Of a DNA stretch of 64,000 nucleotides, positions 5,777 through 61,459 are shown one piece after another (position 1 is the stretch's first letter; every line of letters starts with the position of its first letter). The notes beneath the pieces were generated by a model. The model ran no database searches. It saw only the letters and a program-made list of their open reading frames with translations, and had not been told where the DNA came from. The stretch lies in contig JAFWDV010000018.1 of assembly GCA_017515985.1 (NCBI GenBank), forward strand, positions 39,091-103,090. The letters are read 5' to 3'. The position numbers and the translations under genes were made by a program. Source of the DNA: Clostridia bacterium. Lineage in GTDB: Bacteria; Bacillota; Clostridia; TANB77; CAG-508.

Positions 5777-5825
5777 TTTTATTAAAAACGGGGAAGAAGC
5801 ACATGGCAGTGCCATGTGCTTCTTC
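5777..5825 (-). terminator. Intrinsic terminator of islet-A paralog 1
   Basis: Perfect 15-bp stem GAAGAAGCACATGGC/GCCATGTGCTTCTTC followed on the minus strand by CCCGTTTTTAAT. Confidence 0.6.
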
Positions 5826-5841
5826 AGAGTTGCGAGGTTGA

Positions 5842-6051
5842 TTAATCAGGATAGTTAAGCTCGAGTTGCTGGAGCAGGACAAAAAAGTGTCCGCCCCGGT
5901 ACCCCGTGTAGCTTGTGATCTGAGGTGGAAATACCGTCTTGACGATGACCCCCTCCTCGGTGCACTCGTTCATAAACTGGTTTACAGTTTTGTCGAGTGT
6001 CCGCGCAAGTGCTGCAACGTCTGCGCCTTTGACTACGAATGTTTCCAACAT
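5842..6051 (-). CDS. Small GC-rich protein, paralog 1 (69 aa, ends ...LELNYPD); function unknown
   Basis: RBS AAAGGAGAGG 5 nt upstream of the ATG. Own terminator. Paralogous to the ORF at 6842-7054. G+C is much higher than in flanking genes. Confidence 0.6.
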   Translation of the reverse strand: MLETFVVKGADVAALARTLDKTVNQFMNECTEEGVIVKTVFPPQITSYTGYRGGHFFVLLQQLELNYPD

Positions 6052-6157
6052 AATGACCTCTCCTTTGGTTTATTTTCCCTGTGATGGGAATGGTGAGCGC
6101 ATGCTCAACCTTCTGTTATTATACCATATTATGTCAATTAATGCAAATGCTTTTGCA

Positions 6158-6200
6158 AAAAAGGGCCCCCGGCATGTGCCGAGGGCTCCCTGCGGTTTTT
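6158..6200. terminator. GC-rich hairpin with A-run/T-run flanks, downstream of the 149-aa ORF
   Basis: GGGCCCCCGGCA...GCCGAGGGCTCCC imperfect stem, then a T9 run. Confidence 0.4.
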
Positions 6201-6206
6201 TTTTAT

Positions 6207-6656
6207 TTAGATTTTGCTATCGGAATTTTTGGCGTAAATTACAGTCATATCAGTATCGACTGTAACACCAATATCCCAGCCGTACTGGTTGAGAAAATGG
6301 CGAAGTGGCTTGGTAAGAAATGCAGTCTCGTAGGCTGACGAGAAAGGTTTTAACGCCTTCTCTTTACCAAAAAACAGCTGTGGTGTGTGAAAATTTTGAT
6401 TGATATAAAGCAAATAATCATCAACATCAAGCTTTTCGGTGCCAGTCTGCGAAGGGCTAGGTACATAGAAACCACGTACTTCGCTTAAGTAGAATTTCTT
6501 ACACTGCTGGTTATCTCCTGTGATGTACGAGTACAGAAGTGCTCCATAACTGTCAAACAGGTCCTGTAAAGCAAATAAATGCCGTGCAGGAATGAGCTGA
6601 ACTTCTGCTCGTTCCACGTGTTTGGAAAAAAAACGCTTAGGTTCATAGAACTTCAC
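6207..6656 (-). CDS. GC-rich hypothetical protein (149 aa); no family recognised
   Basis: GTG start 7 nt after GGAGG. TTTACA-17-TATAAT promoter upstream. Lies between the two paralogous small ORFs. Confidence 0.55.
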   Translation of the reverse strand: MKFYEPKRFFSKHVERAEVQLIPARHLFALQDLFDSYGALLYSYITGDNQQCKKFYLSEVRGFYVPSPSQTGTEKLDVDDYLLYINQNFHTPQLFFGKEKALKPFSSAYETAFLTKPLRHFLNQYGWDIGVTVDTDMTVIYAKNSDSKI

Positions 6657-6787
6657 TTGAATTCCTCCAATCTTATCCGCAGGGTACCAAGGGTATGGTT
6701 AACCACTCAGTAATGAAATCAATTATAACATAATTAGATTACAATGTAAAGAAAAGTAGATCCTATAAGAACCGTCCCTCTCCATTC

Positions 6788-6828
6788 GAAAAAAGAAAGG
6801 CGCAAATGGTATTGCCATTTGCGCCTTT
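6788..6828 (-). terminator. Intrinsic terminator of islet-A paralog 2
   Basis: Perfect stem GGCGCAAATGG/CCATTTGCGCC followed on the minus strand by TTCTTTTTTCG. Confidence 0.6.
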
Positions 6829-6841
6829 CGTGCTCGAGAGA

Positions 6842-7054
6842 TTAATCGGGGTACGTAAGCTCCAGTTCCTGGAAAAGAAGGTAGCTTGTTACGTGTTCGC
6901 CGGGGATAGGTACGAGTTGGCGGGAAAATTTTACCTCAAGAATAATACCTTTTTCCTCGCTTTCGGTGCGGAGCTCGTTGATTTCACAATCAAGAGTCCG
7001 CATAAGAACGTCGGGTTTCAGCCCCCGTAAAGTGATCGTACGTGTTTCTTTCAT
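6842..7054 (-). CDS. Small GC-rich protein, paralog 2 (70 aa, ends ...LELTYPD); function unknown
   Basis: RBS AAAGGGG upstream of the ATG. TTGCTA-17-TATAAT promoter plus a TTCTCGAAAGAGAA palindrome upstream. The CDS is 47% G+C by manual count (100 of 213 nt). Confidence 0.6.
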   Translation of the reverse strand: MKETRTITLRGLKPDVLMRTLDCEINELRTESEEKGIILEVKFSRQLVPIPGEHVTSYLLFQELELTYPD

Positions 7055-7316
7055 GATGAAAACCCCTTTATATTTATTTTTCTCTTTCGAGAAATTGTGG
7101 ACACATTATATCATATTATGTAAAACATAGCAAGCTTATTTTAAAACAAAATAGCAAATCATATACGTACAGAGTATAATACAAGTTGTTTTAGATTATA
7201 CTATATTTTTAACAATAATTAAAAAAGTATTGAAATCCTAATTTTTTTTTGATATCATCTAAAAGAGAGACTAGATTAACAAAAGAAAAGTGAAAGGAGA
7301 ATTTAACAAAGGGAAA

Positions 7317-59457: not shown

Positions 59458-59493
59458 CATAAGAAAAATGATTTTAGGAGGCAAAAGAAAAAT

Positions 59494-60411
59494 ATGAAAA
59501 AGAACGATAAGAAAAATAGTGTTGTAGGTACTATAATTGCAATAGGACTAATTATAGTGATTGCAATATTTGGCGGAAACAATCAAGATTTATTTACATC
59601 GCAGGCATCTAATGATGCAAATTCAGAGCAAGTAAGTGGGTTAGATAACGTAGTTATAAGTAGTGGAAGCGGTTGTATAGCAACTATTCCAGACGATAAT
59701 TATTTGCGTGTATACTGCTTGGATGTTGGTCAAGGTGATAGCATTTTAGTAGTAAACCAAGGAAAAACAATGTTAATTGATGCAAGTACAAACGAGATGG
59801 GAAGTACAGTTGTTAAATATTTAAAAGATTTAGGTATTAAAAAAATAGACTATTTAGTTGGAACTCATCCACATGAGGATCATATCGGTGGATTGGATAA
59901 TGTAATTAAAACGTTTGACATAGGTACAATATATATGCCTAAAAAACAAAGCAATACTAAGACTTTTGAAGATGTTTTAAATGCAATTAAAGCTAAGAAT
60001 TTGAAAGTTACAGCACCATCGATTGGTGATAAATTCAATGTTGGTGATGCAAAATGCGAAGTAATGGCTATAAATAATGATGCTGAAGATACTAATGAAT
60101 GTTCAATAGTAATACAAATGGAATGTGAGGGCGTTAAATATTTATTTACAGGAGATGCTGATTATAACGTTGAGAAATCTAGAAAATGGGATAATATTGA
60201 CATTTTAAAGGTAGGGCATCATGGATCAAGAACAAGCTCATCTAAAGATTTCTTGAATCAAATAAAACCAAAAGTTGCATTAATTTCAGTTGGGAAAGAT
60301 AATACATATGGTCATCCAACAGAAAGTGCACTAAAGAGACTAACTAATGTAGGGGCAAAGATTTATAGAACAGACGAAAGCGGAACTATATTAGTGCTTG
60401 AGAAGAAGTAG
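59494..60411 (+). CDS. ComEC/Rec2-related metallo-beta-lactamase-fold hydrolase with N-terminal TM
   Basis: GQGDSILV and HPHEDHIGGL motifs. Confidence 0.7.
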   Translation: MKKNDKKNSVVGTIIAIGLIIVIAIFGGNNQDLFTSQASNDANSEQVSGLDNVVISSGSGCIATIPDDNYLRVYCLDVGQGDSILVVNQGKTMLIDASTNEMGSTVVKYLKDLGIKKIDYLVGTHPHEDHIGGLDNVIKTFDIGTIYMPKKQSNTKTFEDVLNAIKAKNLKVTAPSIGDKFNVGDAKCEVMAINNDAEDTNECSIVIQMECEGVKYLFTGDADYNVEKSRKWDNIDILKVGHHGSRTSSSKDFLNQIKPKVALISVGKDNTYGHPTESALKRLTNVGAKIYRTDESGTILVLEKK

Positions 60412-60506
60412 AGAATATATAATAATATTGGCGAAGGATGCATATAAGTTTTTTTAGAAAATAATAGACAAAGACAAGTTTGTGTGTTAATATAGTATAT
60501 GCATAT

Positions 60507-60593
60507 GCCGATGTGTTGGAATTGGTAGACGAGGCAGACTCAAAATCTGTTGTCAGAGATGGCGTGTGGGTTCGAGTCCCACCATCGGCACCA
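60507..60593 (+). tRNA. tRNA-Leu (anticodon CAA), with encoded CCA
   Basis: Acceptor stem GCCGATG/CATCGGC. Anticodon loop CUCAAAA. Long variable arm. T-arm GGTTCGAGTCC. 3' CCA. Confidence 0.85.
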
Positions 60594-60600
60594 AAATATA

Positions 60601-60627
60601 AAATCGTACCAAAGGTACGATTTTTTT
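60601..60627 (+). terminator. Intrinsic terminator after tRNA-Leu
   Basis: AAATCGTACC-AAA-GGTACGATTTTTTT. Confidence 0.55.
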
Positions 60628-60695
60628 ATTTTGGATGAGATGGTAGGGACTCGAAAAGGCCGTAAAAGCCAACAGTCCAGTGGACTGTTGGCTAG

Positions 60696-60727
60696 GCCGC
60701 GGGTAGAGGCAACCACCATCGGCAGTA
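60696..60727 (+). repeat. Diverged duplicate of the tRNA-Leu 3' end (shares CCACCATCGGCA)
   Basis: GGCCGCGGGTAGAGGCAACCACCATCGGCA compared with the tRNA sequence GGCGTGTGGGTTCGAGTCCCACCATCGGCA. Confidence 0.45.
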
Positions 60728-60794
60728 GTAATTTGAATTAATAAATAAGCGGTAAACTGTTGTATATTGCATAAAGATGTGATAGAATGGTCAT

Positions 60795-60989
60795 TGTAAA
60801 TTTTTATTATCCAGCCGATGGCTGGTGGTTCAGTTGCAGGATGGATATCCAAAGGTCAGTGCAACTGATATATAGTAAGGGTTGGTGCGAGATTAATTAA
60901 ATAATTTTGAAGTCAAGCACCAACAAAGTAAACAGCAAGTGATGAAGGTCAGCTCACTTGCACGCCTAAAAGTTTAGGAGGAAAAAATT
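60795..60989 (+). promoter_or_regulatory. Long structured 5' leader (candidate cis-regulatory RNA) upstream of the ORF at 60990
   Basis: Four consecutive hairpins: CCAGCC-GAT-GGCTGG, TCAGTTGCA...TGCAACTGA, GTTGGTGC...GCACCAAC and CAAGTGA...TCACTTG. A fifth palindrome, CCTAAAAGTTTAGG, overlaps the RBS TAGGAGG. Confidence 0.35.
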
Positions 60990-61265
60990 ATGGCTATAAT
61001 TTCTATTGATTTAGACAAGGTTGCGCCAGAAATTCGGCGGGAGCTTGCACTAAAATCAGCAGATGTATCTGTATTGGATGAACTTACAAAATACATAGAC
61101 AAAGATTACATTGTTAAAAACAATTTACTCAAAAATCCAGCAACTCCGCCGTATATTCGCAAAAAGATAAATGCTAGTTATCGTCCGCTTATACTTAATA
61201 CAGAAGAATATGGTTCTCATCACGAATACATTGGTGTGGAAGAAGCAACCAGATACGATTATTGA
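60990..61265 (+). CDS. Hypothetical protein (91 aa)
   Basis: RBS TAGGAGG. No family recognised. Confidence 0.45.
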   Translation: MAIISIDLDKVAPEIRRELALKSADVSVLDELTKYIDKDYIVKNNLLKNPATPPYIRKKINASYRPLILNTEEYGSHHEYIGVEEATRYDY

Positions 61266-61459
61266 AAACATGCAGAAGGGGCAGTACTTTGTACTGTCTT
61301 TTCTGTATGTTTTAATATGGTGGGATATTAAAAAGCCGTGGTATAGTGGGAGAATGGTGGTTGGATAAGCTTTGAATAAATTGACATAATCTGGCAAAAA
61401 TGATATAATAATTCGTATGGAGAATTCTAAATAAAGAATTTTTTAGGAGGAATATTATT

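Follow-up and report, generated by a model that had tools for sequence, protein, structure and literature searches.

Promoter–gene–terminator anatomy is typical of phage morons. Integron cassettes are small, mostly single open reading frames (ORFs) of unknown function, usually promoterless and served by a common promoter, Pc. Some hotspots of horizontal transfer are free of mobile elements and owe their diversification to double crossover in the core genes on either side (Oliveira, Touchon, Cury and Rocha 2017, PMC5635113). Here we describe seven G+C-richer islets in a 64,000-nucleotide (nt) stretch of a Clostridia bacterium (GenBank assembly GCA_017515985.1, contig JAFWDV010000018.1, positions 39,091 to 103,090 of the forward strand), hereafter the window. 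The host is an AT-rich, spore-forming, uncultured ruminant-gut member of the Clostridia. The islets are probably natural accessory genes of foreign composition that occupy variable intervals between conserved operons and turn over by recombination in the flanking genes. They are a mixed set and not one element, comprising strain- or species-restricted orphans (islets 1, 2 and 5), an addition to hslO (islet 3), and diverging families that stay at the same locus (islets 4 and 6). Accessory gene turnover of the hotspot type is already known, and no new class of mobile element is revealed; what is new is the gene content.

As in hotspots without mobile elements, accessory genes are found here in few core-bounded intervals, the cargo differs between relatives, integrases and transposases are absent, and flanking core genes show apparent recombination tracts, seen as two pairwise mosaics. 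Pfam annotation of the 64 kb returned no integrase, transposase or recombinase domain in any gene. The islets differ from such hotspots in scale, with intervals of 0.4–1.4 kb, one to three genes in each and seven intervals in 56 kb, and in cargo, which consists almost entirely of orphans and is G+C-richer than the host, not AT-richer. With phage morons they share, islet 3 excepted, autonomous promoter–gene–terminator units, a deviating composition and undisturbed neighbours; however, they lie between housekeeping operons (por, asnS, hslO, hyd, priA, hrcA) and not in a prophage, and homologs were absent from the phage collections searched. As in integron cassettes, the units are small, most consist of one ORF of unknown function, some stand head to tail (islets 1 and 5), and a hairpin-forming sequence marks the 3' end. 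In contrast to integrons, there is no IntI, attI or conserved attC, the units are dispersed instead of forming one array, and nine out of ten have their own promoter. An integron-like system was rejected, as no tyrosine recombinase was found and the 3' hairpins are unrelated intrinsic terminators with T-runs.

A sliding G+C profile (400-nt windows) showed a background near 0.30, with rises to 0.39–0.49 at 5600–7200, 20400–20800, 28800–29400, 34800–35600, 40000–41200 and 45200–45800 and a broader rise at 60400–61400. The edges of the islets were then set by comparison with relatives and exceed the ORF-based coordinates (for islet 6, for example, they are 44966–45918). The segments obtained in this way have a G+C content of 0.36–0.44, compared with 0.311 for the window outside them, and total 5.9 kb, or 9% of the window:

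5775–7136: islet 1, G+C 0.428
20355–20866: islet 2, G+C 0.381
28877–29241: islet 3, G+C 0.414
34848–35677: islet 4, G+C 0.402
39979–41126: islet 5, G+C 0.440
44966–45918: islet 6, G+C 0.358
60594–61330: islet 7, G+C 0.374

The compositional signal resides in synonymous sites. The G+C content at third codon positions (GC3) is 0.197 ± 0.032 in native ORFs (n = 52, maximum 0.275) and 0.35–0.60 in ten islet ORFs, which places the latter at z = 4.8 to 12.6 relative to native ORFs (Mann–Whitney p = 1.4e-7). The eleventh islet ORF, P91 of islet 7, has a GC3 of 0.25 (z = 1.7), and the elevated G+C of this islet stems from a tRNA gene, a repeat of the 3' end of that tRNA and a structured leader. Structured RNA was ruled out as the cause of the G+C peaks, the sole RNA gene that ARAGORN and Rfam find in the window being tRNA-Leu(CAA) at 60507–60593. 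The G+C-richer islets are real and compositionally foreign. A reading made earlier from the letters of the window, which we call the sequence-only reading, had counted at least seven of them; this holds for islets 1–6, which stand out from a profile that is not uniform in G+C or codon usage, and islet 7 is marginal by the GC3 of P91. Its expectation that the non-core biology of the window is concentrated in the islets was borne out, as the non-core genes of foreign composition sit there. With a host of 31% G+C, nearly any donor would be G+C-richer, which may account for the compositional signal.

Deliberate engineering, entertained in the sequence-only reading, or chimeric assembly might be suspected from the tidiness of the cassettes, with their consensus promoters, 5' hairpins with GAAA loops and perfect terminators. 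The likelihood of either is negligible. The window is 100% identical to scaffold_796 of the ENA ruminant-gut metagenome ERZ28653651, and its proteins are those of an NCBI metagenome-assembled genome (MAG) named "Clostridia bacterium" (MBR2744827–882). Islet 1 recurs in ERZ28653974, ERZ27256867 and three Logan runs (99.5–100% identity), islet 2 in two JGI samples, and islets 3–6 in ERZ27256856, with 99.985% identity over 19.5 kb. The junctions are thus reproduced by separate samples and assemblers (ENA scaffolds, megahit k141, Logan, JGI and the NCBI MAG) at 97–100% identity and with natural polymorphism, the source being uncultured ruminant-gut metagenomes. A synthetic construct would be absent from nature and free of variation. 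Here, ratios of nonsynonymous to synonymous substitution rates (dN/dS) are 0.09–0.20, and at the same loci, other wild species have diverged orthologs of islets 4 and 6 (39–61% identical). Both engineering and an assembly artefact can be excluded.

The genes of islets 1 and 2 are arranged as follows (CDS, coding sequence; aa, amino acids):

6795–7136, minus strand: islet 1, cassette P70; promoter TTGCTA-17-TATAAT with TG at 7133–7105, 5' hairpin
7054–6842, minus strand: P70 CDS, 70 aa; terminator 6829–6795
6157–6794, minus strand: islet 1, cassette P149; promoter 6750–6722, CDS 6656–6207 (149-aa orphan), terminator 6186–6165
5789–6156, minus strand: islet 1, cassette P69; promoter 6147–6118, CDS 6051–5842 (69 aa), terminator 5825–5793
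20355–20866, minus strand: islet 2; promoter TTGACA-16-TATAAT at 20842–20815, CDS P112 20746–20408 (112-aa orphan)

P70, P149 and P112 are real genes under purifying selection in wild populations: the differences between alleles are mostly synonymous, with dN/dS values of 0.20 for P70 (versus relative L095), 0.09 for P149 and 0.19 for P112. P70 and P69 are paralogs with 35% identity (E = 4e-13), and P69 has a GC3 of 0.60. A profile search with P70/P69 returned members of their own lineage only, and for P149, a comparison with 5.8 billion protein clusters gave no homolog beyond the cluster to which it belongs. The terminator of islet 2 (20386–20364) works in both directions and is shared with a convergent DNA-alkylation-repair gene. 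Islet 2 is also present in L093 and L094.

Islet 1 is variable as a whole and in part. In L002, L003 and L004, minD is followed directly by por, and the sequence corresponding to 5775–9565 of the window is missing; this comprises islet 1 and an adjoining AT-rich gene (7290–9392) for a 700-aa cell-surface protein with Flg_new repeats and Laminin_G_3. Since the surface protein gene is absent from L002 as well, accessory DNA of host-like composition shares the islet 1 hotspot. Strain L095, which is ~92% identical, lacks exactly 5789–6156, i.e., the 368-bp P69 cassette; its junction falls in an A-run between two terminator hairpins, and its homology to the window ends at 7136, the outer edge of islet 1. 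At least one cassette, P69, therefore acts as a separate unit of insertion or deletion between strains.

Elsewhere, too, the same core-gene interval holds different accessory genes among relatives, as is seen for hydA–priA, fmt–hrcA, M50–nuoE and dtd–hslO in addition to minD–por. Comparison with related genomes, which the sequence-only reading had proposed in order to find out which islets are absent from them, divided the set: relatives lacking islets 1, 3, 5 and 6 were found, and islets 4 and 6 have counterparts at the same locus elsewhere. The hydA–priA and fmt–hrcA intervals contain islets 5 and 6:

39979–40315, plus strand: islet 5a; promoter TTGAAA-17-TATAAT at 39980–40008, 2 nt past the hydA stop codon
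40085–40276, plus strand: P63 CDS of islet 5a, 63 aa, very basic; two leader hairpins (leader z = −4.6), terminator 40286–40304
40316–41126, plus strand: islet 5b; promoter 40322–40350, CDS P208 40433–41059 (208-aa membrane protein)
44966–45918, plus strand: islet 6; promoter TTGCGG-17-TAGAAT with TG at 45025–45053, hairpin ~45852–45881
45114–45833, plus strand: islet 6 CDS, 239-aa free-standing HNH nuclease

Two syntenic relatives in GTDB, L013 and L014 (HydA 87% and 79% identical, respectively), align with the window from 35677/8, which is also the right edge of islet 4, and their homology breaks at 39978|41127 and 44965|45919. Around islet 5, the alignable sequence is bounded by the hydA stop codon and the priA promoter; the islet 5b terminator (41085–41104) ends just ahead of the latter, which is conserved. 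Between hydA and priA, L013 has a G+C-rich gene for a 312-aa secreted acidic-repeat protein, and L014 has a G+C-rich gene for a 316-aa protein together with several AT-rich genes; these are unrelated to P63 and P208. The L013 protein (11838–12776) consists of ~14 acidic repeats (KDAEETCPEPSEV). The two genes of islet 5 (39980–40060 and 40322–40400) have near-identical extended −10 regions, AAATATGKTATAATTAAYTAATC, and the same two-hairpin leader layout, which suggests either duplication of a promoter–leader module or a common operator. In the fmt–hrcA interval, the cargo is the HNH gene in the window, an AT-rich Thg1-like gene with no HNH gene in L013, and both Thg1 and HNH genes in L180. The L180 protein is 61% identical to that of islet 6, in the order fmt–Thg1–HNH–hrcA, with flanking proteins that are 74–94% identical. 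The islet 6 HNH gene has 31 homolog clusters, and copies with 54% identity are found in a different context.

Islet 3 departs from the other islets in its construction:

28877–29259, plus strand: islet 3; a G+C-rich ORF of 102 codons (28954–29259) between the native hslO promoter and the ribosome-binding site (RBS) and GTG at 29260

This ORF has neither stop codon nor terminator and runs in frame into hslO, which encodes Hsp33. Gene callers report a 395-aa Hsp33 for islet 3 plus hslO (28954–30141), whereas Hsp33 in other members of the same 90% cluster has 293–294 aa. By eye, the promoter at 28848–28876 is similar to that of hslO in relative L186. This relative lacks 23112–29241 entirely and aligns with the window again from 29242, just ahead of the RBS and GTG. 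As judged from the sequence, islet 3 would be a segment added in frame at the hslO 5' end, where it replaces the 5' untranslated region seen in L186; it may be expressed as a 395-aa fusion, or translation may restart at GTG 29260. The islet would add a foreign segment at the N terminus of the Hsp33 chaperone. The claim that every islet is a self-contained cassette fails here, since islet 3 has no promoter, stop codon or terminator of its own, and with it the claim of a cassette terminator abutting the hslO RBS. The corresponding claim for the −35 element of the por promoter stands, the P69 terminator being ~20 nt away from it. Upstream of islet 3, at 27163–28618, are five tandem copies of a 291-nt unit, 60–84% identical, that span the 3' end of a gene for a 1374-aa helicase-like protein and the 306-aa gene that follows it. 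A metagenome scan with the 1374-aa protein for relatives around islets 2 and 3 gave no match.

Islet 4, upstream of nuoE, has counterparts in several relatives:

34848–35677, plus strand: islet 4; promoter 34853–34881, terminator 35640–35666, overlapping two-gene operon
34912–35304, plus strand: P130
35294–35617, plus strand: P107

P130 and P107 are distant paralogs (23% identity). Their family is rare: a search of 1.84 billion representatives yielded 25 clusters at 50% identity. The domain of ~100 aa has conserved G-G-H...A and A-I motifs and is found either in tandem genes or fused into one protein with two domains. AlphaFold2 modelled it with a pLDDT of 95, and no solved fold matched; the predicted fold is confident and appears to be new. 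L176 has a fused 240-aa version (1024–1746; 44–47% identical, G+C 0.35) directly upstream of nuoE, with a NuoF that is 94% identical to that of the window and a different gene upstream of the fused protein. In L178 and L179, the family lies between M50 and nuoE, with a P107-like gene that is 39% identical. The L178 gene (2686–3006) is directly upstream of nuoE, and the L179 copy is just after M50. In L178 this gene has a G+C content of 0.41, compared with 0.21–0.29 in its flanks, and adjoins a G+C-rich segment without a called gene. In L177, the family is found at another locus.

Pairwise identity profiles revealed two sharp mosaics in flanking core genes. The window is 100% identical to L002 over 3601–5774 (porA, porD and porG; 2.2 kb), and this identity stops exactly at the edge of islet 1; elsewhere it is 62–85% (before position 2700) and 74–79% (beyond islet 1). 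This indicates that 3601–5774 is a very recent recombination tract ending at the islet 1 edge. Compared with L093, the window is 92–100% identical across islet 2 and into asnS, of which the 3' third is included (20229 to ~21430); farther on, identity is 50–76%.

These mosaics also bear on whether the islet genes could be native, inherited vertically and evolving fast as lineage-specific genes, with a G+C content due to selection or a mutational peculiarity. Such an origin is improbable for genes whose GC3 lies 5–12 standard deviations above native and which, in the cases of islets 1, 3, 5 and 6, are missing from close relatives, the ~92% identical strain lacking the P69 cassette only. Purifying selection and the occurrence of the islet 4 family and the islet 6 HNH gene at the same loci in other species would fit a native origin, as would the G+C-rich islet 4 copy of L178, but the L176 and L180 versions are near host G+C (0.35), unlike the window alleles, and the flanks are recombination mosaics.

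We propose that the accessory genes turn over in the following way. Following the uptake of DNA with such a gene, a double crossover in the conserved genes at either side would replace the whole intergenic interval; the exact placement of the islets between transcription units would then arise because entire intervals are swapped. Their exact-looking edges may arise because alignment between species survives in constrained sequence alone. Capturing a foreign gene in the first place would require illegitimate joining, for instance at A/T runs beside terminators. A persistence filter would act afterwards, with only those genes remaining that have their own promoter, RBS and terminator, are co-oriented with their surroundings and do no harm to neighbours. 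We infer that the look-alike anatomy of the cassettes results from this survival filter for autonomous genes between operons.

Several points weigh against this account of turnover by flanking recombination. No donor was identified, and transfer rests on composition and on presence or absence. Neither P149 nor P70/P69 has a homolog outside the lineage among the 5.8 billion clusters. Other species have islets 4 and 6 in synteny, and recent import is therefore not required for them; decay toward host composition does not predict an islet 4 copy in L178 that is G+C-rich as well (0.41 versus 0.21–0.29). No relative lacking islet 2 or islet 7 was found, the asnS scan having covered 80 loci, none of them syntenic beyond asnS. 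The co-orientation of ten units and the promoters located 2–25 nt past stop codons are tolerated by the account and not specifically predicted. Finally, the evidence for recombination consists of pairwise identity profiles and not of population-level data.

The resemblance between the cassettes was examined in ten transcription units: three in islet 1 (P70, P149 and P69, head to tail on the minus strand), P112 in islet 2, the ORF of islet 3, the two-gene P130+P107 operon of islet 4, P63 and P208 in islet 5, the HNH gene of islet 6 and P91 in islet 7. Nine of these have a promoter that matches 10–12 of 12 consensus positions with a spacing of 16–18 nt, as well as a strong Shine–Dalgarno sequence and a G+C-rich hairpin followed by a T-run. 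A near-consensus sigma-A promoter, an RBS and a perfect G+C-rich hairpin terminator had been ascribed to all islets; this applies to the nine units but not to islet 3, which relies on the native hslO promoter and has no terminator. The inverted repeat said to follow each −10 element is clear in half of the leaders, where the 5' hairpin exceeds shuffled sequence in stability (z <= −2), and less pronounced in the other five. Nor is such uniformity unusual, contrary to what had been supposed: native genes in the window (minD, nuoE, hrcA, priA and those at 19536, 19662 and 58312) have equally near-consensus promoters and RBSs of the AGGAGG type, and the total number of promoter-like matches in the window is not above that in shuffled sequence. 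Differences are seen in the terminator stems, which are G+C-rich in the islets and either AT-rich or part of a palindromic repeat family in native genes, and in the TRTG extended −10 element, found in 8/9 islet and 5/12 native promoters (Fisher p = 0.04, a weak signal scored by eye).

All ten units are co-oriented with their upstream neighbour, and several islet promoters begin 2–25 nt past the upstream stop codon. One class of minimal mobile promoter–ORF–terminator cassettes, inserted by an unlinked enzyme after stop codons or into terminator T-tracts, would be expected to look like this, and the commoner TRTG element, the head-to-tail order in islets 1 and 5, the clean 368-bp P69 indel from one terminator A/T run to the next, and a downstream context of P91 that differs in relative L189 could be read in the same way. 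We nevertheless consider it very unlikely that the islets form such a class. No repeat or other sequence family is common to the cassette ends or hairpins, and target-site duplications or terminal inverted repeats do not rise above chance; the best repeats bordering islets 1 and 5, direct or inverted, measure 5–6 nt (P = 0.4–0.9 versus random position pairs). The cargo is unrelated, with GC3 values from 0.25 to 0.60, islet 3 has no promoter or terminator of its own, and islets 4 and 6, at 39–61% identity, are old residents of their loci. In addition, the 64 kb contain no recombinase, and no cassette has a copy at a second locus within the window. The sequence-only reading had suggested one family of mobile cassettes that targets promoter-proximal sites and might show common flanking motifs or target-site duplications at its boundaries; the absence of both, together with the differences in cargo, G+C and age, speaks against it. 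A transposon, insertion sequence or MITE was likewise rejected, as terminal inverted repeats with a target-site duplication are absent from islets 1 and 5, and the 12-nt terminal inverted repeat of islet 6, the only islet to have one, consists of the arms of a genome-wide palindrome.

It would be a long shot to invoke an undescribed insertion mechanism that acts in trans across this clade of gut Clostridia, placing self-expressed, co-oriented modules after stop codons or in T-tracts, with a hidden pool of fast-evolving conflict genes, including P130/P107, as cargo. We retain it because the P69 indel is clean, every unit is co-oriented and promoters begin right after stop codons; it could also cover the G+C-rich orphans at the same sites in L013, L014 and L178.

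Islet 7, the weakest of the set, lies beside the tRNA-Leu gene:

60594–61330, plus strand: islet 7 (weak); promoter TTGTAT-17-TAGAAT at 60760–60788, hairpin near 61275–61305
60990–61265, plus strand: P91 CDS, 91 aa

The P91 leader of ~200 nt (60790–60992) is predicted to form four hairpins with a minimum free energy of −61.6 kcal/mol (z = −5.0 versus dinucleotide shuffles). It belongs to no Rfam family, a permissive Rfam scan of 60594–61000 having given chance-level matches only, and could be an undescribed cis-regulatory element. In L189, the homology to P91 ceases immediately ahead of the stop codon, and the small genes downstream are not those of the window. The 12-nt 3' end of the tRNA-Leu gene, CCACCATCGGCA (60579–60590), is repeated exactly at 60713–60724, 134 nt downstream, with 0 such repeats expected by chance. 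The repeat resembles a scar left by an integrase-mediated insertion whose DNA was later deleted. A location beside a tRNA gene and a direct repeat of its 3' end, as in integrase-mediated genomic islands, are seen at islet 7 only, and there is no integrase between tRNA-Leu and the next native gene.

The att-scar-like repeat is also what might be expected if the islets were what is left of decayed prophages or of other elements once integrated, with moron-like genes outlasting the deleted element. The moron-like anatomy of the units, the small orphan genes, typical of phage-derived material, and the free-standing HNH nuclease would agree with this origin, which we regard as unlikely: the window has no phage structural, integrase or replication gene, IMG/VR has no relatives of P149, P130, P208 or the HNH family, tblastn searches with P112 and P208 returned no GenBank phage match, and matches to PHROGs concern the generic HNH domain only. 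Seven separate scars would moreover be a large number for 56 kb of core operons. Accessory genes exchanged through recombination in their conserved flanks remain our preferred explanation for the islets.

Against Pfam, PHROGs, PADLOC and NCBIfam, the islet proteins gave no match other than the HNH domain, and islet 1 had no blastn match among plasmids; no phage, plasmid or defence-system relatives of islet genes were found in the searches made. One may speculate that the cargo consists of conflict-type genes (immunity, anti-phage) in view of the fast divergence at fixed loci, the paralog pairs and the strong expression signals. On a small scale, the window shows cleanly how an AT-rich, uncultured gut anaerobe takes up and keeps foreign genes with no visible mobile element, and it flags several uncharacterised, selected and self-expressed small proteins as candidates for roles in strain-level conflict or adaptation in rumen and gut.

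The islet 6 protein contains an HNH nuclease domain of the beta-beta-alpha-metal type. Like free-standing HNH homing endonuclease genes, its gene is a lone HNH gene with its own promoter that is present (L180) or absent (L013) at the same site. It differs from them in being flanked by arms of a genome-wide palindrome and in having a 61% identical copy in another species; with this degree of divergence, it is not a recent invasion.

The inverted arms of the palindrome (GGGACGGAG) that bracket islet 6 lie at 44981–44992 (plus strand) and 45890–45921 (minus strand). The repeat family, AATTTT(A/G)GGGACGGAGGAAAAAATTTTC and its inverse, has copies at 14080–14141, 18087–18125, 30142–30203 and 54730–54780; the two islet 6 arms and 47662–47673 (minus strand) are partial or variant copies. 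The core motif has 12 matches versus 1.35 expected. The copies occupy intergenic terminator positions, mostly between convergent genes, and a related palindrome follows hydA in L014. The family resembles REP-type repeats, with no associated transposase seen. Strain L012 is 99.985% identical to the window up to 47685, in the grpE–dnaK spacer and ~10–25 nt past the palindrome copy at 47662–47673. Beyond that point it has a dCMP-deaminase gene in place of dnaK, which marks another variable interval.

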